Counted from the first letter of the stretch, positions 33,023 to 64,000 are shown. The stretch is DNA of 64,000 nucleotides from a virus (IMGVR_UViG_2654587772_000002); one strand, 5' to 3'. Numbers and translations: made by a program. The notes: generated by a model not told the origin, from the sequence alone.

Positions 33023-33034
33023 CCCTGTTACGCC

Positions 33035-35316: not shown

Positions 35317-35317
35317 G

Positions 35318-36676: not shown

Positions 36677-36778
36677 AAGTTCCCTCCTACGTTGTCAGGA
36701 GGTAATGGTATGCAAAGTAACTTCTCAACCGGTCATGTTACTTGACATCCTCCACGTCCTTTAGAGCGTGGAGGATGT

Positions 36779-37600: not shown

Positions 37601-37674
37601 CCGCCAGACACACTGGATAATCAGTAGAAATAACCCATTAAAATCATTATAATAATTGGGCACATTATTATATT

Positions 37675-39709: not shown

Positions 39710-39718
39710 ATTAATTCC

Positions 39719-42897: not shown

Positions 42898-42908
42898 CAA
42901 GCATATCC

Positions 42909-43343
42909 TTATGCTATAGTCGTGTTGATGGCCATAACTGCGGTATATGTTTTTCCCACATACAGCGAGTCTTCCTGAACACAAATAATTGCGATGGGCT
43001 TATTCTCGTTATCCAGAACAACCAGAGTGTTGAATGGATAGTTTTTCCCTTCCTGCAACTGGCTTTGATCAAGGTCCATTCGGACAGTAATTATCCCGCC
43101 AGAGTAGGTTGGGACGAGGTTGATGGTGCAAAATTGACTGGTCAGTTCTGCCAACTCGAAAGTCTTTGGCAGTTCTCCAATGTCATAAGTACCATCTTCA
43201 TTTTTGGTAACCAGCGAACTGGTGCCGAAAACGGCCTTGCTGATTAAAAATCGAGAGCCTTTGTTAATGGACGATTCAGCGCGTCGCTGATAGTAATAAT
43301 CCAACAACTGACTCTTATAGAGATTTGTTGAGACGTCAGACAT
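42909..43343 (-). CDS. Tail fibre-associated structural protein R-like (144 aa)
   Basis: Position upstream of S. Confidence 0.45.
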   Translation of the reverse strand: MSDVSTNLYKSQLLDYYYQRRAESSINKGSRFLISKAVFGTSSLVTKNEDGTYDIGELPKTFELAELTSQFCTINLVPTYSGGIITVRMDLDQSQLQEGKNYPFNTLVVLDNENKPIAIICVQEDSLYVGKTYTAVMAINTTIA

Positions 43344-43421
43344 GATTTTCCCTAATCAATGTTGTGAAGCCTCATTGTAAGAGAAGTAACTTGTCACCCC
43401 GCCCTGCGGACGGGGTAATTG

Positions 43422-44261: not shown

Positions 44262-45691
44262 TCCTCCTCATACGAAATATTAAAGGTGGAGCTTTCTGTA
44301 TCCAGATAAACGAAATCGTAAAAGCCGTTGGACTCATTCCACTCGACAAATTCCAGATAAAAGTCGCGGAAATAACCCAGCGTTTCGATAAACGCCCAAA
44401 CGTCTTTTTTCTTAATCAGGATGTACTTTCCGACGCGGTTCGGATCAAAGAAAGTTGAGTCGCGCCCAAATTTTGTTTCCAGTGCCGACTTCAGCTCATC
44501 GGTCACATTCTCAATGGTCAGGCTTGCCGATATCCGTCCGGTGATGGTTATCTTAAATGGTAGTTTTCTGACCTCTTTATAAGAGAATTTCTTGTTCAGT
44601 TCATTCGGTACCTTCTTAAAGGCAGTCAGGATCATTTCTTCAAGCTCTGACTGGCTTTTATTTGGATGCCATCCTGAAATAAATATCTTATTGATATTCT
44701 GAACATTATAAGCACCATCTAATTTCTCTTGCTGGCCTTCGCCCCATGCCTTTACCCAGGACAGCCCCGGGATGTTACGAACCAGAAAATACGTATAGTC
44801 CCCGCCCCATACGACCTGATCATCATAGGCAAGGTAATATTGTGCACGGTTACGTGTGATCTCCGTTGTTTCAGCATCGGTACCTGCGGTTATAGGTGTC
44901 GTTGTCTTAACTGAAATCAAATTAGCTAAATCAGCCGCAGAATCGACAGGCGTCAGGTTTTGGCCAGCAACCAGGGTTATATCGCCGTTGGTGCACCATA
45001 CCTTAAGCGTAATTGTCGAACCTTCTGGCGGTATTTGCCCAATTAGCCCATCGCCGAATCGAACCCCCAACTGCTCGGATGGTTTATAAAACTCAACGTA
45101 GACCTGGCTTTTACTACCGGCTAACCGGAACATAGTGCTGGAAGACCACTGCGTGGTCTTCCCATCGGTTGTCACGAATACTTCCAGCTTATAGCAGACA
45201 GCAGTAAGAGCCTTTGATAACACGACTTCCAGAAATTCTTTGGCTGCCGTAACGGTATATGTCACCTCCTGGATTTCCAACTGTGCCACTTCTACCGTAC
45301 CGGTGCCGTCAACCAACCTGCATACATCCATAGTCATGTAAGGGTACTGGTCGTCAGATATTAAAGGCATGTTTTTGGGGATTACCGCTGGGGCATCTTC
45401 ACTTGTGGCGGTGATCTCAATCATCCCCGATGACGGTGTTGGCTTGGTACCAACATAACTGTTCGTTTCTGCCGCAGCCAGGATAGAGGAACGCCGCGTC
45501 GCGGTCGATATAAAGCCTTCAGCCAGCGCCGCATCGGCATACTGAAAGCACCTGTAGACAATCTGGGTAATAAACAATGTCAGCATCGAGACAAATTGAG
45601 AGCCGACAAACTTCGACCAGAATGAATCTTTCTCGACAAGCTCTTCAAACTCTGCACGAATACTGTCTTTAGTCGGTGTTGTTTTACTCAT
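44258..45691 (-). CDS. Baseplate J-like protein BplA-like (477 aa)
   Basis: Size/synteny. Confidence 0.5.
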   Translation of the reverse strand: MSKTTPTKDSIRAEFEELVEKDSFWSKFVGSQFVSMLTLFITQIVYRCFQYADAALAEGFISTATRRSSILAAAETNSYVGTKPTPSSGMIEITATSEDAPAVIPKNMPLISDDQYPYMTMDVCRLVDGTGTVEVAQLEIQEVTYTVTAAKEFLEVVLSKALTAVCYKLEVFVTTDGKTTQWSSSTMFRLAGSKSQVYVEFYKPSEQLGVRFGDGLIGQIPPEGSTITLKVWCTNGDITLVAGQNLTPVDSAADLANLISVKTTTPITAGTDAETTEITRNRAQYYLAYDDQVVWGGDYTYFLVRNIPGLSWVKAWGEGQQEKLDGAYNVQNINKIFISGWHPNKSQSELEEMILTAFKKVPNELNKKFSYKEVRKLPFKITITGRISASLTIENVTDELKSALETKFGRDSTFFDPNRVGKYILIKKKDVWAFIETLGYFRDFYLEFVEWNESNGFYDFVYLDTESSTFNISYEEE

Positions 45692-46047
45692 AGCACCACG
45701 TCCTGTGTGATAGTTATATCCCTGATACGAATGGATATTTTCAACTTATCAAAAGCATCTCCCTCGGCTACTGACAAGCCAGAAATCGGTATGTCAGGTA
45801 AATCTACCGTCAGTTTTTGCAACAGCATTGCCTCAACCGCAATTTGAACATGCGACAAGTTGGTCGGTTCGTGTTTAAACTGCGGTAAAACATTGCCCCA
45901 TGACGGATCTCCGTATACCTCACCCTGATAAGTGTTTAGCCACTCATATAAACGAGCGCCCCAGGCCTCCTCCTGGGACTCATACGTTTTTACGCCGGAT
46001 AACTCCAGCGTCAGCAAAGGATCAATTTCGTTATTGTTGGCCATCAA
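45688..46047 (-). CDS. Baseplate/morphogenesis protein (PmgA-like), 119 aa
   Basis: Synteny. Confidence 0.4.
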   Translation of the reverse strand: MMANNNEIDPLLTLELSGVKTYESQEEAWGARLYEWLNTYQGEVYGDPSWGNVLPQFKHEPTNLSHVQIAVEAMLLQKLTVDLPDIPISGLSVAEGDAFDKLKISIRIRDITITQDVVL

Positions 46048-49000
46048 TCAACTCTCGCGTAGTCATTCATCAACGGATCATCAATTGACAGTGGCACCGT
46101 GCGCATAACGCCCGGTTGAGGCGTGCTGACCTTTACGACAGTTCCCTGGCCTTTCGCCGAGTCTTTAGTGTGCTCTTCAATCCTGGCAAGCAATGAGGTC
46201 ATCTGCGCAAACAGCCGCTTCGTTTCACCATCAAGTGAAACGGTATTATCAGCCAACTGCATTGTCGGCTTGGCACCAGAGCCGCCAAGGTCACTAATAA
46301 CCTGTCCGTCTATCTGCATACGACCGGTTGGTTGCTGCAAATCGTTGGCGGCAGTCGTCACCTGGGACGTGGAGGCTGGTTGAGGAGAGTTATTTGAGCG
46401 CATTCCCCGGGCATTAATGAGTTTGTCATACAGCCCATCAATCCCCATTTGTGCACCGAGTTGGTCAAAGTAACTTGAGTTGTTTGCTACCGGACGTGCC
46501 TCTTCAACTGGCATAGGTGTATCAACATACACATTGCCAGCAGCCGTTGCGGTTCCCCTTCCTCGTGCACGTTCTTCGAGGGTTCCCTGAACGACTTCCC
46601 GACGCATCCCCCGACCATTCATGAATTTGTTGACCAGATCGTTAACGCCAACAGCATTACCGATTTTGTCTACCAAACCGCCTTTCTCAAACGGGCTATC
46701 ACCAGGGGTAAACGCCAGACCAGTAGACTGATCGATAACGGCGTTATCAGGCAGTGGTCCCCTCACTCCATATTGCGCCCCACCCTGTGCTCCTGCTCCA
46801 GGTGTATAGATTTCACCACCTAAATAGCGAGCACGATGAGTATTGACCTTGATCGCGTACTCACGGTTTTCTTTCGATAAGTCACCTGTGCCTTTTTTCC
46901 ACTTATTGATAGTGCCAAACCCAGCATTATATGCAGTGATGGCCTCGTTTAAGTCTCCATTGGCTTGCTTCAGATACTTGCTCATGAGAAGAGCCGCAGC
47001 TTCTGCCGATTTCACAGGATCAAATGCATCCTGTTCCGATATCCCTGTCTCTTTACGAGCAATACTCGTGAACTGGAACATCCCGAGTGCGCCACCACTT
47101 AACTTTCCATCTGGTGATCTTGTAAGCGGAGACTTTGCGTTAGGATCCCCTCCTGATTCAGTTGCCGCAATCGAGTAAAGAGTGCCTTCAGGAAGGCCAT
47201 ATTTATTCTCTAGTTCAGCAAAATACGGAGCCAGCTTATCCAGATTTGCCTTACCTTCAGCGCCAAGGCTTCCGACTTTTACATCTAAGTTGCCATTGTT
47301 GTAGGTATCCGCAGCTTTCTGAATGTCATTCCTAGTGCCAGTAGTATTAAGCGACGATGATGATGAGCTATTTTGACCAATAGCATTATCAATTTTCTGC
47401 AACGCTCGATTGCCCGTTTCTACGGCATTTGCATTGATAATCTGATTGGCAGTTTCTTTAACTGTTTTATTGCTATCTTTCGCCGTCTCTAGGGATGCAT
47501 TTACAACACGAGTGACAATATTAGCCTTTTTAGGGGTATATTCAGTCTTAGGAGCATTGTCCTCCTGACTTTCTTTAGCTGGTGTTTTTAATTCAGGTGT
47601 AACCTCTTTCGCATCCGCTTTGTTGACTAGCTTTGATGCAACCCAGGCCACAGGGGTGCTCTGAACAGCGGCATCGGCAACCTTACCAGGAAGCTCTTTT
47701 GCGGCATTCCATAGATTACTACCAGCCTCTTTAATGTATTTTCCCGGGTTCTTAATGAAATCAATTGCACTATCAATTGCATCACTGAAAACCTTTTTCA
47801 GGTTATCGACAGTAAAGAAGTCTTTGATGGCGTCTAATTTTTCGTTCAGACTCTTGGTTGTGTCACTGAACCAGGCTGAAATAGCATCGCCAATCTTGGC
47901 TGTGTAATCGTTGAATGTTGTGGATATGGTGTCACCAAGGTTAGAAATATATGTTTCTAAATTGGTAATCCCACTATCAATGGCCTGGGCAATACTTTCC
48001 GTCGAAAATGATTGCAACATATTGCCGATATCCTCAAATCCAAGTGATTTGAGAACGCCACCAATGGCATTGCTAATACCAGATACCAGTCCTCCCATAT
48101 CGAGAACGTTAGCCAGTGTATAAGCCGCTTTTTGCTGAAAAGATGGATCTTCCCCATCCTTAAGCCCAAAGGTCCGACGTTGTGCTTCTGTATCATTCCA
48201 ACCGGTTACCGCATCATAGATACCTCCAGCCACCGTGCCGACTAGCGGAATTGCGCGTAAAGCCCCCTTTGCAAAAGCCTTAACACCTAGTTTCTCCAAT
48301 CCCTTAGTTGCAAGTTTTCCGGCACCGCGAGTAGCCAATTCGCCAGCTTCTTTGGCAGCAGCTTTTTTCCCACCAAAGCCCAATAAGCTTGCAACTTTTT
48401 TTATACCTAAAGCGCCTAGTGCCATCGAGCCAACTTTCTTTAGTGCCCCACGGCAAAAAATAAGGGAAGCAATACCACCGGCCCCCTTCCCTAACAGGCT
48501 AAATAATTTGGACAGCAAGCCGCCCTTCTTTTTCCCGGTGTTTTTGGCTATCTGATCAAGGGCGCTGAGAATCTTGTCATTGCCCTCTTTAATTTCGCTG
48601 GTCTGATCCTGAAGTTCCTGAACCGTCCGTTTTTGGGTGTTAACCTGAACGACATCGGCACTACTTTGCGATTTACGCCTAAAAAAACCTTTTCTACGGC
48701 TGTTATCGTCATTGCCACGAATCACATCGGCAATTGACTTTCTGGCACCATTAAGCGAACCGCCAACTTCTTTTGATATTCCGCCAAGCTCCTTTCCTGC
48801 TGCCCACAATGGACCAGCAACGGCATAACCTAAAGCATCGACGGCACGAGTCTCTGAAGGGTTACCTATGCCTTCAGCTACTTTTGACAGTTTTTTTAAT
48901 AAACCCGATTCAGCATTTAGACGCTCATCATCCTCTTTGCGCCTAGCTTTTTCAGCACGTTCAGCACGGGCATCTTCCGCTGCGGCCTTACTCCCTGACT

Positions 49001-49472
49001 TCCCAATAAAACGACCACGCGCATCGCGTTGGTTTTGGCTTTTTTGCGCACCGCCTTTTTGACCGAACATTTCGCGAGCGTGTTCGGCTGCTTCGGTCCG
49101 TTGTGCCTTTACATCCTCTGGTATAGCCTTCCTGCGTCGTTTTTTACCCTTTGGTGTGGTTGATTTGGCCCGCTGTTCCTGTTGAGCAACATCTTCCTGA
49201 ACTACACGAGAAACGTCCCCTAAGTTAAGCCGTTTCATTGCCTCAACAATAGGGTCCACTGATGGCGCATTGGCCACAAAGTCTGGCCGTGAATTTTCGA
49301 TTGTGCGATTTAATGCCGACACACTGCGAGAGACAGGATCAACAGTTGCAACGCGCCCCCCTTTCAAATCTTCAACAGCTTCCCGGATACCTGCAAGCTC
49401 TTCCAGCTCTTTTGCGCTGGCGGTTTCAACTGTCCTTATAACATCGTCAATGTTGGCGTTTTTTCGTTCCAT
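46044..49472 (-). CDS. sit: Sit: tape-measure-like structural protein with lytic transglycosylase domain (1142 aa)
   Basis: SLT-like motif region (…GGALGMFQF…AYNAG…) within very large ORF, size as P1 Sit. Confidence 0.75.
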   Translation of the reverse strand: MERKNANIDDVIRTVETASAKELEELAGIREAVEDLKGGRVATVDPVSRSVSALNRTIENSRPDFVANAPSVDPIVEAMKRLNLGDVSRVVQEDVAQQEQRAKSTTPKGKKRRRKAIPEDVKAQRTEAAEHAREMFGQKGGAQKSQNQRDARGRFIGKSGSKAAAEDARAERAEKARRKEDDERLNAESGLLKKLSKVAEGIGNPSETRAVDALGYAVAGPLWAAGKELGGISKEVGGSLNGARKSIADVIRGNDDNSRRKGFFRRKSQSSADVVQVNTQKRTVQELQDQTSEIKEGNDKILSALDQIAKNTGKKKGGLLSKLFSLLGKGAGGIASLIFCRGALKKVGSMALGALGIKKVASLLGFGGKKAAAKEAGELATRGAGKLATKGLEKLGVKAFAKGALRAIPLVGTVAGGIYDAVTGWNDTEAQRRTFGLKDGEDPSFQQKAAYTLANVLDMGGLVSGISNAIGGVLKSLGFEDIGNMLQSFSTESIAQAIDSGITNLETYISNLGDTISTTFNDYTAKIGDAISAWFSDTTKSLNEKLDAIKDFFTVDNLKKVFSDAIDSAIDFIKNPGKYIKEAGSNLWNAAKELPGKVADAAVQSTPVAWVASKLVNKADAKEVTPELKTPAKESQEDNAPKTEYTPKKANIVTRVVNASLETAKDSNKTVKETANQIINANAVETGNRALQKIDNAIGQNSSSSSSLNTTGTRNDIQKAADTYNNGNLDVKVGSLGAEGKANLDKLAPYFAELENKYGLPEGTLYSIAATESGGDPNAKSPLTRSPDGKLSGGALGMFQFTSIARKETGISEQDAFDPVKSAEAAALLMSKYLKQANGDLNEAITAYNAGFGTINKWKKGTGDLSKENREYAIKVNTHRARYLGGEIYTPGAGAQGGAQYGVRGPLPDNAVIDQSTGLAFTPGDSPFEKGGLVDKIGNAVGVNDLVNKFMNGRGMRREVVQGTLEERARGRGTATAAGNVYVDTPMPVEEARPVANNSSYFDQLGAQMGIDGLYDKLINARGMRSNNSPQPASTSQVTTAANDLQQPTGRMQIDGQVISDLGGSGAKPTMQLADNTVSLDGETKRLFAQMTSLLARIEEHTKDSAKGQGTVVKVSTPQPGVMRTVPLSIDDPLMNDYARVD

Positions 49473-49553
49473 GATCTTATCGCCTACCGTTTCGGTTTAA
49501 GTTTTTCTTCCAGTTTCTCCAACAGGAAAAACGCATAGGATTCAGTAAGCCTT

Positions 49554-50435
49554 TCAGCGTCCTGAATCGGTATACCCCCATACAAAACCAGGTTGGACAC
49601 TAAGGTCTGATAGCTTTTCAATCCCCACCTGTGGAATGAAGTCGGTAGCCCGAAAGGGCACCCACAGACGGGTATATGCACCCTCTGTGGACTCCTTTTT
49701 ATCCTGATTTGGGCATTTATGCGGCGGGAGACGAAGACGCATTTCACCTTTATCGATGTAGCACGGCAAACCATGTTCGAGCTTTTCATGAGCCAGTCGG
49801 ATGTGTGCCGCCAGCTTCATAAATTCAGTATCAATGGCCATCCGTTTAATCGTTTCATAACGACGCTCAGCCTGATCTTCACGAGTACCGCTAACATCGT
49901 TATAAAGCTCACACTGATAAGCGAATTCCCAAAAACGCAAATCAACGATCGCTTCTTTGAATTCCGCGTCGTCTTCAGGTGGCAATGCTGCACGGCGCAT
50001 CTCCAGCATTTCCATTGCCCAACCATCAAGCGGCACGATACGCCATTGATAAGGCACTCCCTCTACAGACACCTCAATATCGTCAATGAACGGTTCCGCT
50101 TCCAGGACCTGGATATCTTCAGCCAGGGCATTCATATCGCAATCGTAATAATGCTCTTTACCGCAATGTTTACAGGTGTAGGTGAATGTCTCGACCGGTG
50201 TTTCACGGGAGCCGGTAAATATCCACCATAACGCGGTAATCCGGTCCTGCGCCGTCCATGTCAGGGGATCATGTTTCGCGGGTTCAGCCAGCAAGGCTTT
50301 TAAATACGCCGTTGTCTGTTGTTCTTGTTCCTCCGGTGTTATCGAGTTGAAACGCATCGCATCAGCAATATTTGGCTGACGGAACTGGATCAATTCAGTT
50401 GGCCGCGATGGTAGCGGGAAAAGAGGTAAAAGCAT
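49554..50435 (-). CDS. Tail morphogenesis protein (PmgB-like), 293 aa
   Basis: Synteny. Confidence 0.4.
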   Translation of the reverse strand: MLLPLFPLPSRPTELIQFRQPNIADAMRFNSITPEEQEQQTTAYLKALLAEPAKHDPLTWTAQDRITALWWIFTGSRETPVETFTYTCKHCGKEHYYDCDMNALAEDIQVLEAEPFIDDIEVSVEGVPYQWRIVPLDGWAMEMLEMRRAALPPEDDAEFKEAIVDLRFWEFAYQCELYNDVSGTREDQAERRYETIKRMAIDTEFMKLAAHIRLAHEKLEHGLPCYIDKGEMRLRLPPHKCPNQDKKESTEGAYTRLWVPFRATDFIPQVGIEKLSDLSVQPGFVWGYTDSGR

Positions 50436-50449
50436 CCTTGCTCCTTAAT

Positions 50450-51061
50450 TCAAAGAGAAAAGCTAAAGCCCAGAAGGGAAGCCAAAGAACTTGAGGATTG
50501 GTTAAACGTGCTGTGCAATGCGAAGGTCATTGGGAATGACTTAAATTCCGTAACCTGATCCCGCGCATAGGTGACATCTCCGGTAGTGACCGGGAATACC
50601 GTCATCTCATTTTCCAGTTTGGTTAAACCGGAGGACAGCAACCGATAAATACGCACATTGAGCAAATATTTAGATGGTATGTTCCCGGTGCCGTCAGGAT
50701 TGATCACCCGACTTTTTGCCGTCTTAAACCAGTCCAAAACGAGGCCATCAACGGTATCCCTGACCATCATTGTTATCTGCCCTGGCGAACGCTCCGTTGG
50801 CTGAAGGATATTCCCTCCGCCGATTTTAATCGTTTCATATTCGATGCTGTAATCGTGGTAGGTAATGTCTTTAGCAAAGAAGTCTGCCCCCTCCAGACCA
50901 TCAACTTCGACAGAGAACTGCCATCCTTGCGCGAACAGCATTTTGTTCATGATGATTGACGTCAGCTTACCAACTTCCCGTTCACCAACGCCGGAGCCAA
51001 ATAATGTCGTCGTTAATGCCGAAGATACATAAGACTTTACTGAAGCAACATTAAGCCCCAT
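50450..51061 (-). CDS. Tail tube-like protein (Tub-like), 203 aa
   Basis: Synteny/size. Confidence 0.4.
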   Translation of the reverse strand: MGLNVASVKSYVSSALTTTLFGSGVGEREVGKLTSIIMNKMLFAQGWQFSVEVDGLEGADFFAKDITYHDYSIEYETIKIGGGNILQPTERSPGQITMMVRDTVDGLVLDWFKTAKSRVINPDGTGNIPSKYLLNVRIYRLLSSGLTKLENEMTVFPVTTGDVTYARDQVTEFKSFPMTFALHSTFNQSSSSLASLLGFSFSL

Positions 51062-51071
51062 ATCAGCCCCC

Positions 51072-51662
<591 letters not shown>

Positions 51663-51996
51663 TTAACCGATTCTACGAGTAGTCATTTGTTCATCGTGTA
51701 ACAATATTGCCATTGGATAAAATAACTACAGCGCCCACAAACGGGCGCATTCTGTACATGACTTGAGATATATTATGTTGCATTAAAGCTTTTCAAATGA
51801 TAATCAGCCAAGCCTTTCGCAATTATCGGCATAGTATTTTGTTGCATTTACTATTATTGACTCATAATACGATTTGCATTCTTTCTTCCATGGAGTGCAC
51901 GAATTTATTTTTTCCATATCGTTTTTATTTTTAGAAATACCAACAAGCATAATGTACCCGATAAATCTTGTTGTCAACGCGCCAATCGGTAGCGTT

Positions 51997-52284
51997 CTAT
52001 TCTCGGCTACTGTCTTTTATTAAATTATCTTTATATTGAGGAATGAAATAGTTACCAACATATTCCAGATTTGCTTCAATAGGATTAAGATAGAATGAGC
52101 AATACTGAAAAGTGGGAATTTGTCTAAATTTAACACCAGAACATAATGAATAAATTTCTTGTTCTTTTGTTAGTTCTTTTACTATGTGACTGTTGTCAGT
52201 CGTATCTTCTAATCTTATATAGTTCAAAGACGATTTTGCTTGTCCTGGGCTTACAAGCTCAATAACAGGATGCCCATTAGACAA
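51997..52284 (-). CDS. Hypothetical protein (95 aa) in AT-rich island
   Basis: ORF only. Confidence 0.3.
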   Translation of the reverse strand: MSNGHPVIELVSPGQAKSSLNYIRLEDTTDNSHIVKELTKEQEIYSLCSGVKFRQIPTFQYCSFYLNPIEANLEYVGNYFIPQYKDNLIKDSSRE

Positions 52285-52334
52285 TGTTATTCTTTCGATC
52301 TTACCCCGAATTCTAGAAGTTTGACTCCATTCAT

Positions 52335-52568
52335 CTAGGCTGCTATTTCATTTTTCTTGAATGAATCAACAATATCTGATGGCAAGCTAAAAACAGTAGC
52401 TTTCGTATTCATAGTATATGCAAGCGAAGCAGATACCATATAGTTTCTGACTAAATTATAGTCCTTCTCGGAAACAGAATACTCATTAGGAATAGCTATT
52501 GAATTTGCAAATGAATAGCTGCTAACAAAAGCAAACGGCAACAATAGTTTAAACATTAATTTTTTCAC
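52335..52568 (-). CDS. Hypothetical small secreted protein (77 aa) with N-terminal signal peptide
   Basis: MKKLMFKLLLPFAFVSSYSFA signal-like N-terminus. Confidence 0.4.
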   Translation of the reverse strand: MKKLMFKLLLPFAFVSSYSFANSIAIPNEYSVSEKDYNLVRNYMVSASLAYTMNTKATVFSLPSDIVDSFKKNEIAA

Positions 52569-52597
52569 TTATCACTATCCTTCGAATATCTTTACAT

Positions 52598-52783
52598 TTA
52601 AAGCCCGTCTTTGCAGAGACTAGTTGCTGTAGCGGTAAGTTGTGAAACAGGAATGTTAGGGCTGTCCCGTTTCTGAAGATACCCGGCGCTTAGTGTGGAC
52701 TGATGCTCTGCTGCGCTCGCTGGCGTACCAGCGGCAACCAGCCAGACTACTGCGGACAGAATAACAGCACATAATTTACGCAT
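52598..52783 (-). pseudogene. lom: lom fragment: first ~37 codons of a Lom/Ail-family outer membrane protein fused to unrelated AT-rich sequence
   Basis: MRKLCAVILSAV...AAEHQSTLSAGYL matches lambda Lom N-terminus, then diverges and terminates at 61 aa. Confidence 0.7.
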
Positions 52784-52850
52784 AATTACCTCTCGCTTTT
52801 CTGCAATAAAAAAGGCGTCATTTCTGACGCCCGTATTGGGGTTATAAAAT

Positions 52851-55800
52851 TCAGCTGATACTGATGCCTGCGGTGGCTTTCTTCATCACCACAACCAGCA
52901 AATCGCTGATACTTGCTGTGGGATACCAGCCATTTACCCACCATGCTGATACCGAAAACTCCAGTGTCATTACGCCACTGCCTGCAGGCATATCAATAAC
53001 ACCCGTGTAAATCAGAGTATTATCCAGAGCCGTTCGGTTATAAATTTCAGCCCCGTTTTTCTTCACTATCAGGCGGCATGACGAATAAGTATCGCTATTC
53101 TCCCGTTCATGTCTGGCACCGCTGAAAGCCACCGCCGGGATAACAATTTGCCGGTCAAACGGCTGATCGTCATAAACCCTGACGGTAATGGTCCCTGATG
53201 GCCACCGTTCCGGTGCACGGGAGTCACGGGGGAAAGCTTTGCCCACTGTTTTAACGAGATCGCCTTCAATCTGGTTCGCGGACAGTTTTCCCAGAACCCG
53301 GCAGTTCTCGTTAATCGTGACGTTGTTGAGCGTCCCGGAGTTCGCATTCACGTTACCGCTGATATCGGCATTTTTTGCCGTCAGCCGCCCGTCCGGTGTC
53401 AGGGAAAATGCCGGAGGATTACCGCCGCTGGTAATGGTGGGAGCCGTCAGATATTTCAGGAACACTTCATTCATAAATATCTGATCGCCCTGACCAACAA
53501 ACATCGGCTTTGTGTTGCCATTCGCAGGATTAATCATCGCAATCCTGTCCGCCGCCAGCAGCACCTGACTCTGCATACCGTCAGGGGTATTCTCAATACC
53601 GGCACCAATACCCGCGATATAAAGGCGTCCGTCCTGCATCTGCTGCAGCTTCACAGCCCACATGCTGTTCAGGTTATTATTTGTATCAACCTGAACCTTC
53701 TGTATCTGCTGAATTGCCGCACTCTGGTCTTCCAGTTTCTTATTGACGGTCTGCGTGATTTCATTGCTGACATCCGTAATGGACGTCCTGATTTCAGCCA
53801 GGTCAGGCGCAAGCTGACCGTTATCAATCTGCGTCCACAGCTCCTGAGCCAGATGGCTTTTCCCTATCTCTCCTTTGAAAAAATCCAGATAGCCGGATGC
53901 ATCATCACTCGGCTGGCCAACAGCCTCCACAAATGCCGATTTGCCAACGGTGTTCACACTGCGGATGTAAAAATAATAATCATGGCCCGGTTTGATATTG
54001 ATACTGGCGGCTATCCAGTACAGCGCCGTGCCAAGATAGCGGGCTGTGGTTTCAACCTGCCTGATATCGGTAATCCGCTTTTCCGAGAACCAGAACTCAA
54101 ACTGTACCGTCGGGTCATAAATGGCAAGATGCGGCGTGGCGGTTATCTGAAAATAGCCCGGCGTCAGCTCAATCCTCGACGGTGCTGCCGGTGCGGCAAT
54201 CCGGAACGATACCGACGCCGCATCGCCCTGCTGCCCCACGCATTTACCGCCCGGACTGTCAGCCTGTAGTTCCCCAGCGCCAGTTGCGTGAAGCGGTATG
54301 TGGTTTCCGTCGTCCGGGCCGTGCTGACCAGCCGCTCACTGCCGTCGTCCGCTGTTACGGTCAGACGGAGCAGGAAGCTCACGCCCTTCACCACCTTCGG
54401 TGTGTCCCATCGCGCCAGCACCTGATATTCCCCGCTGTCTGCAGTGACTTCTGCGGTCAGGTGCTGCACCGCTGGCGGCGTGACACCATTCACCGTGCCA
54501 CTCTGTTCGCCGTCAAAGTGCGCCCCGTTATCCACGATGGCCTCTTTTTCCGGCACATGCTGCACGGCGGTGATGGCATACGTGCCGTCGTCGTTCTCAC
54601 GGATACTCACGCAGCGGAACAGGCGCTGGCGCAGCGTCGGCAGCTTCAGCCCCCATACGCTGTATTCAGCAACACCCTCAGGAACACGGCTCACTTTTAC
54701 CTTCACGCCGTCGTTGACGGACTGAACCTCCACGCTGACCGGATTGCCACTTCCGTCAACCAGGCTTATCAGCGTGGTACCGGAGGATGGCAGCGTGATT
54801 TCACGGTCGAGCGTCAGCGTCCGGGTCTGGCTGTTCACCGCCAGCACACGACCACCGGTGCTGATACCGGCATAGTCATCATCGCAGATTTCAATAACAT
54901 CGCCCGGTACATGGCGAAGCCCTTCTGCGCCGACGCTGAAATCCACGGTCTGCGTCTCCAGCAGCTCCGTTTTAATCAGCCACAGCCCGGCGCGGTGTGC
55001 CTGCCCCCGGCTGGTACAGCCAAAGGCATCCATCTTCGTAACATTACGACCGTAACGGGCAATGGCCTGCGTATCTTCAACAAGCTCTGTCGCCGTCTCC
55101 CAGCCGTTGTCCGGGTCAATCCAGTTCACCTCAACGGCATTATGGCGGTCTTTCAGGGCGCTGAAGCTGTAGCGGAACGGCGCGCCATCATCCGGCATCA
55201 CCACATTACTGCGGTTATAGGTCCACGCCTTATCCGACGGTCGGTCCTGCACGAACGTCAGCGTCTGCCCGTTCCATACCGGCATACAGCGCATCGCCGA
55301 GCAGAAATCACTGAGAACGTCCCACGCCTTGCGCTGTGTGGTCAGGTACGCATTACAGGTGATGCGCGGCTCCGTGCCGCCAAAGCCGTCCGGCACTGAC
55401 TGGTCGCAGTACTGGCCGATGACATACAGCGCCCATTTGTCCACATCCGCCGCACCAAGACGTTTCCCCATGCCGTAGCGCGGATGGGTCAGCATATCCC
55501 ACAGACACCAGGCCATGTTGTTGCTGTATGCTGGCTTAAACGTTCCGTCCCAGATACCGCTGTATTGTCGCGTCTGCGGGTTATAGTTCGACGGCACCTG
55601 CAGAATGCGCCCGCGAAGATGATAATTACGACTCACCTGCTGGCTGCCGAACTGCTCCGAGTCCACCTGTACGCCGACCAGTGCCGTGTTCGGGTAGCAC
55701 TGTTTCACATCGATGATTTCGGTGTATGACGACCAGAGCGTTTTGTTCTGCAGCTGGTCTGTGGTGCTGTCCGGCGTCATCCTGCGCATCCGGATATTAA

Positions 55801-56329
55801 ACGGGCGCGGCGGCAGGTTATCCACCACCACCGAGGCCAGATACTGCGAGGTGGTTTTGCCTTTAATGGTGATGTCTTTTTCCGTCACCCAGCCACCGTT
55901 ACGCTGTATCTGAACCAGCAGGCGGACTTCCGACGGATTCCGGTCCCCCTTTGAGGTGGTTTCCACCAGTGCCTGCACACCGAAGGTAAAGCGCAGACGG
56001 TCGATGTTTGCAGACGTGATGGTCCGGGTAATCGGCGTGTCGTACTTCACTTCCGTACCCAGCACCGTCTCGGAGCCGGAGGATTCAAACCCCTCCGGCG
56101 GTGTCTGCTCCTGCTCACCGGCACGGAACACCACCGTGACACCGGAGATGTTGGTATTCCCCTCAGTGTCCAGCACCGGCGTACTGTTCAGCAGCACGCT
56201 TTTTAATCCATCCACCGGACCTTCAACCGGCCCTTCGCTGATGGCATCGATCACACTCAGCAACTGCGTGGACTTCAGGTTGTCCTTCGCTTCGCGCGGG
56301 GTATGCCCCTTACTGCTTCCTTTACTCAT
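52851..56329 (-). pseudogene. J: Lambda-type central tail fibre / host specificity protein J, split by a frameshift near 54164-54239
   Basis: Two consecutive ORFs (721 + 462 aa) both near-identical in pattern to lambda gpJ; break at ...AVNAWG / QQGD... Confidence 0.9.
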
Positions 56330-56389
56330 TCCTCACGCTCCATAAATGACAAAACCGCCCGCAGGCGGTTTCACATAAAACATTTTGCA

Positions 56390-57061
56390 TCAGCGACCAA
56401 TCACCACAACCTGACCACCGTCCCCTTCGTCTGCCGTGCTGATCTCCTGAGAAACCACGCGTGACCCCACGCGCATTTCCCCGTACAGAACAGGCAGAAC
56501 ATTGCCCTGGGCAACCATGTTATCCAGTGAGGAGAAATAGGTGTTCTGCTTACCGTTATCCGTTGTCTGTGTACGGGGAGTTCTGGCTTTCGGTGCCAGC
56601 ATCTGCGCCACACCACCGAGGACCATACTGGCACCGAGAGAAAACAGGATGCCGGTCATACCACCGGCCCCAATGGCTGCCCCCCATGCTGCAAGGGTGG
56701 CTCCGGCGGTAAAGAATGATCCGGCAATGGCGGCAGCCCCCAGGACAATCTGGAATACGCCACCTGACTTGGCCCCGGCGACTCTGGGAACAATATGAAT
56801 CACAGCGCCATCAGGCAGAGTCTCATGTAACTGCGCCGTTAACCCGGACGTGCTGACGTCCCGCCCGGCAATCCGTACCTGATACCAGCCGTCGCTCAGT
56901 TTCTGACGAAACGCCGGGAGCTGTGTGGCCAGTGCCCGGATGGCTTCAGCCCCCGTTTTCACACGAAGGTCGATGCGGCGACCAAATCGTTGTAAATCCC
57001 CGTAAAGGCAGATGCGCGCCATGCCCGGTGACGCCAGAGGGAGTGTGTGCGTCGCTGCCAT
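56390..57061 (-). CDS. I: Lambda-type tail assembly protein I (223 aa)
   Basis: Recognised lambda gpI-like sequence and size. Confidence 0.9.
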   Translation of the reverse strand: MAATHTLPLASPGMARICLYGDLQRFGRRIDLRVKTGAEAIRALATQLPAFRQKLSDGWYQVRIAGRDVSTSGLTAQLHETLPDGAVIHIVPRVAGAKSGGVFQIVLGAAAIAGSFFTAGATLAAWGAAIGAGGMTGILFSLGASMVLGGVAQMLAPKARTPRTQTTDNGKQNTYFSSLDNMVAQGNVLPVLYGEMRVGSRVVSQEISTADEGDGGQVVVIGR

Positions 57062-57702
57062 TTGTCGGTGTACCTCTCTCGTTTGCTCAGTTGTTCAGGA
57101 ATATGGTGCAGCAGCTCACCGTCACCACAGTAAATGGCGGCATGATTCGGCACCGATGAACCAAAACAGCACAGCAGCACATCGCCCGGCTGCGCCGCTG
57201 ACAACGGCACCTGATACAGCCCTGTGGCCTCCAGATTATCCAGATAGAGATTCTGACCGTGACGCCACCAGTCATCCCCGCGATGAAAATCCGGCATCTC
57301 AATCCCCGCCAGATGATAAGCATCCCGGAACAGCGTGTAACAGTCCGTCACCCCGTGCTCAAAGCGCCGCCCGGTGAGATGCGGCACACAGCGGAACTTA
57401 TGAATCGCCCCCCGGCAGACCAGCCACCACGGCAAATCACTCTGCACCTGCAGCCGCCGGTCAGCCTCACTCAGCCAGGGCAGACCACCGGGGTGGCTGT
57501 GGACCAGCGCCACAATCTCACCCTGCATTTCTGCCTGCAGCCAGTCCTCCGGAGCCATCCGGAAATAATCCTCCGGCTCACCGGAAATATTCACGCCGGG
57601 AAAATATCTTTCCCCCTCCGGCGTGCTTACCACGAAGCCGCACGACTCCGCTGGCGCACATCGCCGGGCGTGCGCCAGAATCGCTGATTCTGTCTGTGTC
57701 AT
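56959..57702 (-). CDS. K: Lambda-type tail assembly protein K (NlpC/P60-JAB-like)
   Basis: MTQTESAILAHARRCAPAESCGFVVSTPEGERYF... as in lambda gpK. Confidence 0.9.
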   Translation of the reverse strand: MTQTESAILAHARRCAPAESCGFVVSTPEGERYFPGVNISGEPEDYFRMAPEDWLQAEMQGEIVALVHSHPGGLPWLSEADRRLQVQSDLPWWLVCRGAIHKFRCVPHLTGRRFEHGVTDCYTLFRDAYHLAGIEMPDFHRGDDWWRHGQNLYLDNLEATGLYQVPLSAAQPGDVLLCCFGSSVPNHAAIYCGDGELLHHIPEQLSKRERYTDKWQRRTHSLWRHRAWRASAFTGIYNDLVAASTFV

Positions 57703-57707
57703 GGGAT

Positions 57708-58406
57708 TTACTGCGAAAGTTTGTTAATGGAAAGGAAGCCGCCAAAGTTGCCGACGTTATTGCGAAACTTACAGCCACTCAGGCATTTGCTGCATTTATC
57801 CTTCGTGATATCGGACGTCGGCTGGTCATATTCATCCGCGACCGCCGGACCGCTATAACCGCACTCATCGCCGCGATAGGTCCAGGTGCAGGTGTTGGCC
57901 AGCATGATACGTCCCGGAAAAACAGCGCCATCCGTTTCAGTCGGCGTGGACAGTACAAAAGAGGCACTGACCGCGCTCAGTTCGCTGCACTGCTCGATGC
58001 GCCAGCGGCTGATCACCTCCTGCTCCGGATCGGCTTCGCTGTTTCCGTTGACGAAGTTCACCGCATCCAGAAAGCGGGCGTAAACCTTACGCCGGACCAC
58101 CGTTCCGCCGACCAGACTCTGCAGATCTTCCGCCATCCCGGTGATCATGCCGTGCAGGTTAGAGACCGTCAGTGTCGGACGGGCAGCACTGCCCTTGCCG
58201 TTCATCTCAAATCCACTCCCCTGAATGGGATAGGCCTGATACTGCCGACTCTGCCAGGTGACAGACTCACCTTTTTCGTTCTGCTCATTACAGAAAAAGT
58301 AGCGATCCCCGTCTACCTCTGTCAGGTCGATTTCCCAGAGCACCACGCTGGCAGACTGCTCCGCACGAATGCATTCATTCAGCGTTTCCTGTTGTATGTC
58401 CTGCAT
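57708..58406 (-). CDS. L: Lambda-type minor tail protein L (232 aa)
   Basis: Recognised gpL sequence incl. C-terminal Cys cluster. Confidence 0.9.
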   Translation of the reverse strand: MQDIQQETLNECIRAEQSASVVLWEIDLTEVDGDRYFFCNEQNEKGESVTWQSRQYQAYPIQGSGFEMNGKGSAARPTLTVSNLHGMITGMAEDLQSLVGGTVVRRKVYARFLDAVNFVNGNSEADPEQEVISRWRIEQCSELSAVSASFVLSTPTETDGAVFPGRIMLANTCTWTYRGDECGYSGPAVADEYDQPTSDITKDKCSKCLSGCKFRNNVGNFGGFLSINKLSQ

Positions 58407-58744
58407 CAGATCACCACTTCGTCAAACTGACACGAAAAATCGGTATAGGTGATATGTTCTGTCGCTGACCACGTTCGACACACCACTCTGATTTTTCTGT
58501 TAATACCCGGCGGGCGCCAAAAAAAAGATTTATAGCCTTCATGCCGGGCTAAAAATTTTTCAAATGAATCACGTTCATTCGCCTCAACTTTGAAATCACA
58601 GGTGAAAACGCGCAGAGAATGATTAAGTCCATTTGGACTTCGTTGCTCATAACCATCGCCAAATCTTACAGTTTTTATCGATGGTTTATTTTCTGTTTTC
58701 ATTCCATCCTCTGGTAACCAGTGAAATTCTTCCGTATTAGCCAC
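58406..58744 (-). CDS. M: Lambda-type minor tail protein M (112 aa)
   Basis: [10 protein letters not shown]... motif as gpM. Confidence 0.85.
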
Positions 58745-61700
58745 TTAACATTCCCCCATCACGTCGCATATTTAACAGATTGCCCTGCACCCGCTGATCA
58801 ACCATCCCCATAAGTGCTTTTATTGCCTGAGGGCCAATCTCTCCATTCTGGCCGTCATTTTGAATAGTGATTTGGTATACAGGGGCATAGGTAATATCTC
58901 CGCCTCCATTACCACTTTTACTATTAATAGCTCTGACACCAAGAGAACCATCGGAAGTTCGTGTTAATGGCATAATGGCTTCCGGACCAGCCTCACCAAA
59001 AACACCAGCCCCTCTTGCAAAAGCAAAAAATTGCGGGGAATCATAAATACCGTTCGAATACGTGTTCAATGACGGAGACTCATAAACACCGCCCTTTGCA
59101 TTCGGAATAAATTTACTAATAGCACTCCCGATAGTTCCTAAAATCCCCCCAGAAGAACTGTTACTAATGCTGTCGAAAATCCCAGTAATTGAAGCCTTTA
59201 ATGCTATTCGACTAAGATCCGAAATCACGGAAGTAGCGAAAGAACGAAAATTTGCCTTGCCTGTCGTGACAAAATCACCCAGCGCATCGGTCATTCCATC
59301 AAACATCTGAGTCGTGGTTGATTTTATCTGCTCACTGATATCCTTAGTGTCATCCAGCCAGTTATTGAATCCCTGGGAGGCACCACTAACCCAGTCTCCT
59401 GCCTGAATATCGAGCTGCTCGTTTTTCTGTCTGACAATTTCTTTTTCTCGTTCCAGAGCATCATTCAGAGCCTGCATTTTCTCCTGAAAAACATGATTTG
59501 ACATCCCACGGGATTTATCTGCATAGTCACGTTCAAGTTGCAGACGCTGATTGTTATATTCACGTTCAATCCGCAGTAATTCCTGCTGGCGTTGCTGATT
59601 TTTATCGCCAACCCCATAACCAGCAATCTGAATATCATACCCCTGTTGACGATTATCAATCGAAGCCTGCAATGAATCACGCCATGCAGCTATTTCGGCG
59701 GATTCCTTGATTAGCCTGTTATTTTTTTCAATCGCAACATTTTTCTCCATCAACGCGGTTATTTCTTCCAGGTGTAAGAGAAGCGATTTCTGATCCTGGG
59801 TTAATTTCGATGACGGTCGTGACTCCAGGTCGGCAATCTGCTGACGCCACTTAACCAGTTCCTGTTCAGAGGAACTTAATTTAACGGTTAATTCAGTTTG
59901 TGAACTTAGTAACGCATTCTGTTGATTCAGATGATCAATCATTCGTTGGGCAGCATCATCCGAATAACCTTTCGCCTTTGGTTGCTTTGGATCTTTATAA
60001 CGCTCATTTATTTGAGCGATAAAATTATTATATTCTTCCTTTGAATACTGACTCTTTAGCTTTTCCAGTTTTGCAAGTTCACTAGCTCTCTGCTGCTCCC
60101 GGGTCTGATATTGTTTTGAAAAGGCATCTGCTCTCTGTCTGAGTTCAATTCCTTCCTGTTGTCGCTTGTTGTAATCGTTTATTGATGAATTTAGGACGTC
60201 CTGAGCAATTTTTTCTGCTTGAAGTACGCCCAATTGCTGCTTTAATCGTGCCAGCCTTTTATTTTGAGCTCCGCCATCTCCAATGCCACCTAACCCGAAA
60301 ACTCCGGGTCGGGTATTTTTTTCTATTTCATCAATTTGACGGAGAACATCTGAGATTTTTTGATCAAGGGAGGCCTCACGGCCAATGTCCAGCATGGAAT
60401 CCCATGCCCATTTTGCGGAGTCTGCGACAGCTTTCCATGCAGTCTCAAGATAACCAAGATTTTCTTTAATCTGGTTGGTGCGCTGGATCATTGAGGATGA
60501 GTATTCTTCTGTCGCAATGCGGGCGGCCTCCTGCTGGTTCCCTTCATCCTGTAGCGCCTTAATCTGGTTATAAGTCGCAAGTGTCAGAAAATGGTACTGA
60601 TCATTAAGTTTTGATATGGCACTGACAGGATCCTTTGCAATTTCATTGAAGTCATTAACCAGTTGTTCGGTTGATATTCCTGTTACTTCGCTCGTTTTTA
60701 CTATCGCTGTCGTCACTTGCTCCAGCGAACTGCTCGCTACCTTTCCCGAACGCACAAGCTGATTTAATACTGCCGCCGCAGCACCAGTTGTCGAATCAGC
60801 CGCATTCCCGGCACGTTGAGCTATATCGCCCAATTGCCCGCTGGTTGTCCCCAACTGATTTCCGGTAAGAATAAGAGATTTATTAAATTCGTCCTGCTCC
60901 TGAGAGCCTTTATAGTAAGCCAGTCCTAAGACCCCAACGGCTGCTGCGGCCAGGGTAAAAGGATTAATTAATCCCAGCACATAAGAACCTACACCTTTGA
61001 TCGCCGGGCCAATCCCACCGAACATATCTTTTAGCTGGCCGCCCTGCTGCATTAACACCATAAATGGCGACTGACCAGTGGACAACCCAACAACAATATC
61101 CGTCATTTGTGCAGGCAACATGCGCATAGCAAAAGCCGTTTGTTTTGCCGACATTCCGGTTTTGCTTAATTGTGATTGAGTAACCTCAAGCTCACTCCGC
61201 ATAGCACGAAGTTTTCCAGAAAGCTCCTCATACATTTCAGGAGAAAGCATCCCCTTAGCTTTTGCTTCATTGAGCTGTTTCTGTTGTTCTACCAGACGAT
61301 TAAAAGCAGTTCCGACAGGATCAAGTTGAGCAATCAGACGTTGCAAAGCAACAACCTGTTCATCATGCGCTTTTGCTGCTTCTCGCTCTGCCTGAGCCTC
61401 TCCGGTAAGCTCTCGCCGTGTTTCCTGTATTTTTCGGCTATAATTCTCAAACTGAGAACCATTTATTTTCCCGGATGCAAACGCAGCATTAAGTTCATCA
61501 TGCTGTTGTTCAAGATTTCTTAGCGCCGCAGCCAGAGGGTCGATCTTGTCCAGCATTCTTTGAAAGGCCTGAGCCTGCGCTTCCTGCTGGGCGGCAGCAA
61601 GTTTTCCGGCCTTCTCGGCTTCTCTCTGCGCTTGCGCAACCCCGCTCAATTCCTCTGTGGTTTCATTAAGTTTACGGACAAGAAATTCATATTCTTCTTT

Positions 61701-61970
61701 ATCAATAAGCCCTTTATCGAAAAATTTCTTTAATTCAGAATAGCGTCGACCGACAGTATCAATTGCGGCACCAACTGGATCAATAGCTGCTTTTAATTTT
61801 GCGAGCGCGTTCTTCTCATCTTCTGTTGCCTTAGTCACTTTCCCTGCGCTATTTGCAGCAGTTTCCCCAGCCTGCGTCATTTTGACTAATGAGGAGGTCA
61901 GATTGTCAGCATTATTTTTCGCTCCAGTGCTATCAATAATTATTGCGAGACGCGAGGTTTGCTCTGCCAT
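58737..61970 (-). CDS. H: Tail tape measure protein (gpH-like), 1077 aa
   Basis: Long coiled-coil-rich ORF between G/T and M. Confidence 0.85.
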
Positions 61971-62135
61971 TTATTAAAACTCCTGACAACAAAAAACCCA
62001 CCGCGAAGTGGGTTTCAGGCGACATAATAGTAGATATAGCGATTACGAGGCCACGCAATGCTTTTCTCCAGGAGCATCATCGATTTAATTAAAGACACCA
62101 TCACATCTCTGTAACAGAGTGTACGTAATTAACAA

Positions 62136-62369
62136 CTACACACACTGCTCCTGAAAATACTGGTCATCCAGTGCAAAGATCACTGCTTCAAATTCATCGC
62201 GCTCAATCAATACCGGATGAGTGGCTAAATATTCATTTATCTCTGTCAGAGATAAAGGCAAAGGCACCCCAGCCATTCCAGCATAACGTCGGGCACGGGA
62301 TATTACCGAATAGGCGTACAACAACTCCTTAAGCACCGGGTCTATTTCTGGTTCCGGTATCGGTGGCAA
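62136..62369 (-). CDS. T: T segment of tail assembly chaperone, expressed as G-T fusion via -1 frameshift
   Basis: ORF in -1 frame relative to G, contiguous with slippery site A AAA AAG at the end of G. Confidence 0.7.
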   Translation of the reverse strand: MPPIPEPEIDPVLKELLYAYSVISRARRYAGMAGVPLPLSLTEINEYLATHPVLIERDEFEAVIFALDDQYFQEQCV

Positions 62370-62443
62370 CCTGAGTTTTTCTCGCTTCCATCTTGCCTTT
62401 TCCCCCCTTTCTCCCCCGAACTCCGATAACCACCGCTGGGCAG

Positions 62444-62905
62444 CTATGGCTTTTTTATCGTATCCTGCTTCTGCTGCTCTTTACCCTGGGCGATGCTGGC
62501 TGCTTCTGCAAGGATCTGCCAGTACAACTCTGGATTCTGCTTAAGCAGCGCGATCCCTCGTTCTGCCGTATATTCCAGTGCAACCTCAACACCATTAACC
62601 AGTTCACCAACCCCTTTCCAGTCTTTCAGCAGATAACGAGCGGCATTATCAATGAGTAAATCATCAACAGAATCCACCTCGGAAACCTTTGAAATATCAA
62701 ACTCCTTCGTTCCGACGTGCAAACTGGCATCCATTTTCTCAATGTGGCGACGGATTAATGCATTACGGGAGCGATACTGATCGTTATCGCTGCTTGCCAC
62801 CAACAGTTTTAACCCGTCTACAGGTTTTAAGTCCTTCATTGGCGTAAACCAGCGTTCTCCACCAATGATAATTTTCTGATTAAGAATAAACATCCATAAC
62901 CTCAT
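62444..62905 (-). CDS. G: Tail assembly chaperone G-like (153 aa)
   Basis: Position between major tail and tape measure genes; slippery heptamer at 3' end. Confidence 0.75.
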   Translation of the reverse strand: MRLWMFILNQKIIIGGERWFTPMKDLKPVDGLKLLVASSDNDQYRSRNALIRRHIEKMDASLHVGTKEFDISKVSEVDSVDDLLIDNAARYLLKDWKGVGELVNGVEVALEYTAERGIALLKQNPELYWQILAEAASIAQGKEQQKQDTIKKP

Positions 62906-62953
62906 TCAATGCGTCCCCCTGTAGGGCAGTACCACAGGAGGAATAACGGAAAA

Positions 62954-63916
62954 TCAACTAATCGCCTCAGCACTGGCTTTTGCGATCACGGCAGCCGGGG
63001 AATTTTTTTTTCTGGTTATCGTAGGTGCTTCATCTGCTGCGGTAATGCTCAATTGAACCTGGATAATGTCGCTATTACCCCCATCAGGCCATTCACCTGA
63101 CACCTGAACCTTCGGGAAACTGAAAGTGTATGCCCCCTCTCCATTCGAAAGCGTGAAGCTGAACGGAACTGTTTCTCCAGTCAGTGTTTTACTCCAGATT
63201 TCCCACGCGGCTTTAGACCATGAAAGCGTCACCGTACCGGACGGTGTAAAAGTAGTCGGAATATTTGCTCCTGCATAAGGCGAGCCAGTCCCGATACAAC
63301 GCTGTGTCTGGAGTTTGTTATCGAACTGAATATCAAAACTGTCGATACAAAAACCGTTACCTCCGGCAACACCATTCAGGCTTACTGCTGAAACCTCCTT
63401 AAACGAATAACGTAGCTTTCCTGCACTATCCACAGGTTCGCCTTTGATAAAATTCGTATCATCGGCCTTTGATTCCCAGTCCAGTCCGGCAAAGGTTACG
63501 GTCGCTGTAATATCGCCGTCGTTAGGGATCTGCATTTTCCATGAGCCAACCTGCGCTCCTCTGACGACAGAGGCAATTCCGACATCGGACGCATAGGTCG
63601 CCAGAGAAAATGTTATTCGCTCATTCCCCATTGTCAGAGAATCGCCTGACCATTCCGCGCCGAAACAGGATGCAAGAAAATCATCATGTTGACCCCAGCG
63701 AAATTTGGTACCAACATCACCGCCGACATCCACAGTGCCAGGCGTCGCCCCCTGAGCCATCCGGGAGCCACCAATCTCATTATTTTCGCCTTTATTATGG
63801 GTGGGTTTTACTCCCCAGCTTGTGCGTTTTAATAAACTCCAGTCACCACTTGCTGGCGTAGTGCCTGCAACCGTCTCCCGGATAAATGCCGAGATAACCT
63901 TTGCACCTGAACTCAC
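62954..63916 (-). CDS. Major tail (tube) protein, 320 aa, with Ig-like C-terminal region
   Basis: Position upstream of G-T-H; not the lambda gpV sequence. Confidence 0.6.
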   Translation of the reverse strand: MSSGAKVISAFIRETVAGTTPASGDWSLLKRTSWGVKPTHNKGENNEIGGSRMAQGATPGTVDVGGDVGTKFRWGQHDDFLASCFGAEWSGDSLTMGNERITFSLATYASDVGIASVVRGAQVGSWKMQIPNDGDITATVTFAGLDWESKADDTNFIKGEPVDSAGKLRYSFKEVSAVSLNGVAGGNGFCIDSFDIQFDNKLQTQRCIGTGSPYAGANIPTTFTPSGTVTLSWSKAAWEIWSKTLTGETVPFSFTLSNGEGAYTFSFPKVQVSGEWPDGGNSDIIQVQLSITAADEAPTITRKKNSPAAVIAKASAEAIS

Positions 63917-64000
63917 AGGAGCCTCCTATGTCATTAATTGCGCTAGAGCGCGCGATATGGAATTTGAAGATTAAGCTGGAACCAGCCATTCTTTTCGCCA

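Follow-up and report, generated by a model that had tools for sequence, protein, structure and literature searches.

Phage lambda (NC_001416) carries its tail genes in the order V-G-T-H-M-L-K-I-J-lom, with a -1 frameshift in the G/G-T arrangement, and phage P1 (NC_005856, Punavirus) carries its tail and baseplate genes in the order S-R-16-bplA-pmgA-sit-pmgB-tub-pmgC. Both arrangements are found in IMGVR_UViG_2654587772_000002, the 64,000-nucleotide stretch of viral DNA that we analyzed here and refer to as the window. The P1-type genes S, R, 16, bplA, pmgA, sit, pmgB, tub, and pmgC lie below 52673, and a minus-strand lambdoid module consisting of the tail tube gene, G/G-T, H, M, L, K, I, J, and lom up to codon 37 occupies 52673-64000. 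The original prediction, made from the sequence alone, was that a lambda-type tail module lies beside P1-type tail genes on the minus strand, and Pfam, PHROGs, and alignment to P1 all bear this out. The lambdoid features that it listed are present where it placed them, but the block begins at 52673 with a remnant of lom and not at 52851. We conclude that 52672/52673 is very probably a contig or scaffold boundary joining separate elements, and that the split in J is most likely a consensus error, with no biological recombination junction involved.

The closest relatives of the window

We searched window 40000-64000 by megablast against 5,426 complete E. coli genomes. A single record, NZ_CP007393 (deposited as the "chromosome" of E. 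coli strain ST2747), covers 84% of this interval, at 99.9% identity. Window segments 1-6542, 8149-18933, 20871-39928, and 41516-50309 align to a P1-like block of CP007393 at 99.94-100%. A P1 stretch of 8,794 bp matches at 100%, and the prophage part, 52673-64000 (11.3 kb), matches at 99.87%. Window segments 6543-8148, 18934-20870, 39929-41515, and 50310-52672 are missing from CP007393, which has the remainder of lom and 429 bp of stf in place of the last of these. CP007394 is of the same lineage, and the window matches it, too, at 99.9-100%. Both records place the two elements side by side, and both contain homopolymer frameshifts and genes annotated as "partial in the middle of a contig."

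A further relative, FDAARGOS_1279 (NZ_CP069957, 844.5-864.7 kb), is 99.91% identical over window 52673-64000, with nine mismatches and one gap in 11,329 bp. All nine single-nucleotide differences from FDAARGOS_1279 are common to the window and the ST2747 copies. Its gene order (tube, ydaY/G, H, M, L, K, I, J, lom) matches that of the window exactly, and its H, M, L, I, and lom proteins have the same accessions as those of the sister ST2747 records. The FDAARGOS_1279 prophage runs J-lom-stf-...-pinR and contains no P1 DNA. By comparison with such a Rac-type prophage, the window ends 111 nt into lom and then continues with P1 DNA instead of lom-stf-tfa-pinR.

In CP007393, CP007394, and FDAARGOS_1279, the tail module sits in a full-length Rac-type prophage with the order recET, racR, kilR, sieB, ydaS/T, trkG, head, tail, lom, stf, pinR, ydfK, followed by ompN and uspF. 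Because the module continues into the head genes, trkG, racR, recET, ompN, and uspF, we assign the tail module of the window to a chromosomal Rac-type prophage.

The ST2747 genomes come from a study in which a parent strain and two in vitro nitrofurantoin-resistant derivatives were sequenced with PacBio C2 chemistry at ~28x (Xavier et al. 2014, PMC3983296). Each strain gave ~14 scaffolds, which were ordered on a map of ATCC 8739 into a "gapless chromosome," with assembly sizes of 5,054,424, 4,998,910, and 5,090,326 bp; plasmids were not reported (PMC3983296). A procedure of concatenating scaffolds is thus documented for the window as well, provided that the window belongs to the ST2747 project, as its 99.9-100% identity suggests. 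By elimination, we infer that the window comes from the third ST2747 record, probably CP007392 (5,054,424 bp).

The junction differs in every ST2747 record

Homology to the Rac-type prophage ends at 52673 and P1 homology reaches 52672, so that the two abut with 1 nt of microhomology (52672-52673). No insertion sequence (IS), no att or lox site, and no filler sequence lies between the P1 and prophage homologies at 52672/52673, and beyond the single shared base we found no recombination signature at the junction. Among the 5,426 complete E. coli genomes, 72,556 plasmids, and 50,697 phage records, none bridges 52672/52673. A 44-mer spanning the junction likewise has no exact match in GTDB representative genomes or IMG/VR. 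Three ORFs peculiar to the window, namely the J parts of 721 and 462 amino acids and a lom'-P1 chimera of 61 amino acids, also had no exact protein match.

The ST2747 records differ from one another in where the junctions lie and in which P1 segments are missing. In the window, P1 DNA at 52672 meets lom codon 37. In CP007393, pmgB' (window 50309) meets stf' after a full lom, and on the other side icd meets 'J. In CP007394, the P1 dar region (window 33266) meets K' (57141), and sequence beyond parB meets 'V (63240). The junction of the window is therefore shared with neither of these related genomes. Furthermore, prophage sequence is repeated on both sides of the P1 block, over ~4.4 kb ('J-lom-stf) in CP007393 and ~6 kb (V'-K') in CP007394. 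Such duplicated prophage ends are expected if a plasmid contig was inserted between two overlapping chromosomal contig ends.

We also counted insertion and deletion (indel) events in each prophage copy against the independent genome FDAARGOS_1279. In the left copy of CP007393, 10 of the 12 events fall within ~2 kb of the junction. All 21 events in the left copy of CP007394 fall within 2.6 kb, and all 10 in its right copy within 2.5 kb; the only event in the window is the J indel. Of the five prophage copies that adjoin a junction, four thus have their indel errors clustered within ~2.5 kb of it. When the P1 side of the window is compared with the P1-like plasmid p24AR0070B, the interval 51750-52336 shows six indel events and 48400-51749 shows none, a weaker point because this comparator is only 97.6% identical.

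The content of CP007394 was judged on a 100 kb stretch (NZ_CP007394 2.10-2.20 Mb; L005/L007). Only four P1 fragments are present there, equivalent to window 621-5059, 9317-12454, 24172-29276, and 29715-33266. Many genes there are annotated as "partial in the middle of a contig," and the record seems unreliable well past the region studied here.

The split in J

The ORF map confirms that J is divided into open reading frames (ORFs) of 721 and 462 amino acids, at 54164-56329 and 52851-54239 on the minus strand. Pfam identifies J domains across the two ORFs (FNIII-A_GpJ, Phage-tail_3, Ig_J / Ig_J_second, Phage_Tail_Tip, Ig_GpJ_C). The reading frame is broken at a run of four C residues at 54234-54237 (G4 on the coding strand). 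Five are present in all four other copies (two in CP007393, one in CP007394, and one in FDAARGOS_1279). This is the sole gap relative to FDAARGOS_1279 in 11,329 bp, and it lies 1.56 kb from the junction. Restoring one C gives an uninterrupted J of 1159 amino acids, identical to the J of CP007394 and two residues different from that of FDAARGOS_1279.

The sister records have private homopolymer frameshifts of their own. CP007393 has them in K (C5 compared with C4 in the window at 57350), in the tube gene (T10 compared with T9 at 63002), and in lom, and CP007394 has them in H, M, L, and K. On the simplest reading of these sequences, the frameshift in J reflects an error in the PacBio consensus and not a pseudogene. 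The original prediction had offered a non-functional fiber or a sequencing error, and it is the sequencing error that agrees with the C5 of the four other copies.

Weighing the explanations

In the explanation that we favor, the window would join two elements of one ST2747-lineage E. coli, a P1-like phage-plasmid (1-52672) and the tail module of a Rac-type prophage (52673-64000). The join would have arisen when scaffolds from low-coverage PacBio data were put in order and strung together as a "gapless chromosome," and the J frameshift would come from a G5/C5 homopolymer that was called one base short in the poorly covered 1-2 kb beside that contig end. In the cell, J would most likely be intact and followed by lom-stf-tfa-pinR, and the P1-like element would most likely be a free plasmid with its own complete set of myovirus tail genes. 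An assembly join is favored because the sister junctions differ, the prophage ends are duplicated, and ~14 scaffolds were concatenated per strain. The original prediction had named an assembly join beside a composite or defective element, and the latter is not supported.

Several points weigh against this explanation. The window is linked to the third ST2747 record by elimination, and the contig boundary at 52672/52673 is inferred from the sequence comparisons and the published assembly method. The right-hand junction of CP007393 has no indel cluster. Finally, all three ST2747 assemblies have their P1 material in one and the same part of the prophage, its tail region, which is not expected from random placement. 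The same placement could plausibly be caused by identical manual ordering, or by a 1.27-kb repeat shared by S and stf that misled the assembler or the ordering software.

The shared placement also speaks for a real integration, in which illegitimate or homology-assisted recombination put a P1-like phage-plasmid into the tail/lom region of the Rac-type prophage and produced a chromosomal composite with two tails. Rare chromosomal integration of P1 via IS1 or Cre/loxB has been described and counts in the same direction. In addition, a 1,265-bp stretch in direct orientation is 93.5% identical between P1 S and prophage stf (window 40028-41292, within S, compared with stf at L002 31305-32569 and FDAARGOS_1279 L006 3001-4268), which could support recombination. 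However, no junction falls within this S/stf homology, with S intact and bordered by P1 flanks in the window, and none falls at loxP or at an IS. The differing junctions would have to reflect later rearrangement under selection with nitrofurantoin, which is SOS-inducing, and three different junction sets would be needed within three platings of one strain. The overlapping prophage duplications and the junction-concentrated indels indicate contig ends instead. Moreover, the sister P1 blocks lack essential segments (pmgB-tub-pmgC, and far more in CP007394), which fits incomplete assembly, and the adjacency occurs in no other genome searched. We therefore consider a real integration very improbable. 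The fuller version, in which the element is truly integrated in the ST2747 Rac-type tail/lom region and rearranges rapidly under nitrofurantoin, with all three junction sets real, is slightly harder to credit; if it were true, ST2747 would carry a chromosomal myovirus-siphovirus composite.

An artefactual join could also be combined with a genuine J frameshift, produced by slippage in the G5 run in this isolate and inactivating the tip attachment protein. Homopolymer slippage does occur in vivo, and the sequence as given has G4 on the coding strand. Against this, the four copies with five bases include both isogenic sister strains, and if the window represents the parent, both derivatives must have reverted. 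Homopolymer indels unique to one assembly also occur in otherwise conserved tail genes of every ST2747 record, and the J indel, the only one in 11.3 kb relative to FDAARGOS_1279, lies inside the error zone seen in the sister assemblies. A genuine frameshift is very unlikely on these grounds. A natural hybrid phage-plasmid, kept outside the chromosome after its P1 backbone took up a lambdoid tail module, would agree with the many records deposited as plasmids that contain lambda-type J, K, L, I, and lom genes. The best plasmid coverage of 49000-64000 is nevertheless at most 38%, and lom is cut at codon 37 without functional logic. Because the tail module runs into the chromosomal Rac context in every relative (ompN and uspF in the sister assemblies and in FDAARGOS_1279), we regard the hybrid plasmid as barely conceivable.

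Three specific origins of the join were considered and set aside. A homologous crossover between S and stf would leave hybrid S/stf genes where P1 and prophage meet, but S in the window is whole, and its homology to stf, 11 kb from the junction, is unrecombined. Integration mediated by Cre/lox or an IS was set aside because cre (7087-8118) is distant from the junction and the P1 and prophage homologies there have nothing between them. A hybrid P1-lambda plasmid of natural origin was set aside as no plasmid or phage record searched contains both parts together. The stretch shared by S and stf looks like a fiber module that a myovirus and a siphovirus have in common. Assemblies are also likely to break there, and the CP007393 gap at 39929-41515 covers it.

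Organization of the lambdoid tail module

Tail genes were called from the ORF map and a Pfam scan on the lambdoid side and with PHROGs profiles on the P1 side, and blastp was used for comparison with lambda. All genes from the tube gene to lom lie on one strand in the order found in lambda. The tail tube (major tail) protein, of 320 amino acids, is encoded at 62954-63916 (minus strand, as for all genes of the module) and matches Pfam PF18906 (Phage_tube_2, E = 7e-31); it is annotated as a phage tail tube protein in CP007393 and FDAARGOS_1279. It is followed by a G-like tail assembly chaperone at 62444-62905, a homolog of YdaY according to the ydaY annotation in relatives. A slippery sequence, A_AAA_AAG, lies at 62456-62450, just ahead of the G stop codon, and the -1 frame is open to 62136. 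The translated fusion would be a G-T product of 256 amino acids (62136-62905), so that a G/G-T pair with a programmed -1 frameshift is predicted upstream of the tape measure gene, as in lambda. The G-like and G-T ORFs had no Pfam match in the scan of window proteins.

The tape measure protein H (1077 amino acids; 58737-61970) matches TMP_2 (1.4e-81) and Tape_meas_lam_C (3.9e-26). Minor tail proteins M (58406-58744; Phage_min_tail, 1.2e-31) and L (57708-58406; Phage_tail_L, 9.4e-98) come next, followed by the tail tip assembly protein K (56959-57702; JAB and NlpC/P60) and the tail assembly protein I (56390-57061; Lambda_tail_I, 1.1e-28). K is whole in the window and frameshifted in CP007393, where it is also annotated as such. 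Beyond J, the 37-codon lom remnant (52673-52783) matches Ail_Lom over profile positions 1-39 of 199. It reads on into P1 DNA as a chimeric ORF of 61 amino acids at 52598-52783.

The original prediction that this module closely matches lambda in both order and sequence is correct for the order, but for the sequence only in part. The amino acid identity to lambda is 93.5% for L, 98.0% for K, 99.6% for I, and 83.3% for J, and the more distant M and H are at 42% and 28%. For the window tube and G/G-T proteins, blastp gave no match to lambda V, G, or T at E <= 1e-3. Judged by sequence, then, the tube protein is outside the lambda V family, and the tube and G/G-T genes are lambda-like in gene order alone. 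A sharp mosaic boundary is present at ~58.4 kb, between M and L, with the L-K-I-J side lambda-like and the M, H, G/G-T, and tube side distant or unrelated. The GC content is 58-59% at 54-58 kb and 46% at 58-62 kb, and this step at ~58.4 kb agrees with the split between the lambda-close L-K-I-J genes and the lambda-distant upstream genes. Megablast matches to plasmids and phages mostly end at 58,359-58,429.

Organization of the P1-like element

The P1 tail and baseplate genes are on the minus strand, with PHROGs matches (PmgC, Tub, PmgB, Sit, a baseplate protein, and a tail fiber) at E <= 1e-56. They comprise the S tail fiber (39997-42984), R (42909-43343), 16 (43422-44261), bplA (44258-45691), pmgA (45688-46047), sit (46044-49472), pmgB (49554-50435), tub (50450-51061), and pmgC (51072-51638). 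The last three match PHROGs 1854, 1842, and 1851, respectively, at E <= 1e-102, in agreement with the P1 annotation. The nucleotide identity to P1 is 95.5% over 42000-51710 (9.7 kb), with the gene order from S to pmgC kept, and this identity and synteny place the region with the tail/baseplate region of P1 (Punavirus).

Between pmgC and the junction, a minus-strand P1-like segment at the P1 sim position (51691-52672) aligns to p24AR0070B (NZ_CP195366) at the 97.6% identity given above, reaching window 52672 (L004 position 7272). A hypothetical gene of 260 amino acids at this position in p24AR0070B is broken in the window (51997-52568, minus strand) into ORFs of 95 and 77 amino acids. The split is due to single-base indels relative to p24AR0070B at 52015 (T4 compared with T3) and 52336 (A compared with AA), which may be further consensus errors close to the contig end or real decay. 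The final 76 nt of the next gene follow, up to 52672. Compared with P1 and P1-like plasmids, the window element is cut within the hypothetical gene at the sim position and abutted to lom; it also carries accessory inserts typical of P1-like plasmids.

Maintenance and regulatory genes of P1 are distributed between the window and the contiguous P1 block of CP007393. By Pfam, the window encodes Lpa (154-606) and a Cre-like integrase, a tyrosine recombinase of 343 amino acids (7087-8118; PF00589). P1 Cre is likewise 343 amino acids long. C1 (5082-5933) had no Pfam match; its name comes from CP007393, where the gene is annotated as "phage repressor protein C1," and pacAB was also named from that record. 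The CP007393 block encodes a RepB-family Rep, ParA/ParB, and Phd/Doc. Taken together, Rep, ParA/ParB, Phd/Doc, the Cre-like integrase, C1, and Lpa are, by their predicted products, functions of an autonomous P1-like phage-plasmid.

Several other features of the P1-like element were observed. The segment of 1,606 bp absent from CP007393 at 6543-8148 includes the 343-amino acid tyrosine recombinase and is probably an assembly gap in that record. A DarB-like methylase/helicase is encoded by a giant ORF of 2255 amino acids at 15677-22444; CP007393 lacks its 1.9-kb inner part (18934-20870), where the gene is annotated as frameshifted, and the flanks of the missing part share ~15 bp. An antirepressor-type gene (PF10543, ORF6N) lies at 3947-4705, between pacB and c1 (surroundings ~3.4-5.0 kb), and its CP007393 counterpart is annotated as a KilAC antirepressor beside an icd-like gene. 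The canonical ImmI icd/ant region, located elsewhere in the P1 block (L002 24398-24933), matches window 4494-5040 at 84.5% identity, which indicates that the element has two related antirepressor loci. Finally, a TnpB/InsQ gene (OrfB_IS605, with a Cas12f-like TNB domain) is located at 24274-25404 on the minus strand, within the P1-like backbone and adjoining the head-processing protease gene.

Implications

The main value of this analysis is as a flag on data quality. The ST2747 "complete chromosomes" CP007392-CP007394 appear to contain a P1-like plasmid artificially inserted in a Rac-type prophage, and the ST2747 records carry many homopolymer frameshifts. At least one published survey has treated the P1-like DNA as truly chromosomal (PMC6906374). 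We suggest that surveys of phage-plasmid integration, prophage mosaicism, or pseudogenes drop the ST2747 records or re-assemble them. With the join and the miscall taken as artefacts, neither the adjoining tail systems nor the broken J shows anything biologically unusual. The biological payoff is accordingly minimal, as both tail modules are well-known systems of separate elements, and the two tail systems are best explained as belonging to two ordinary, known elements.

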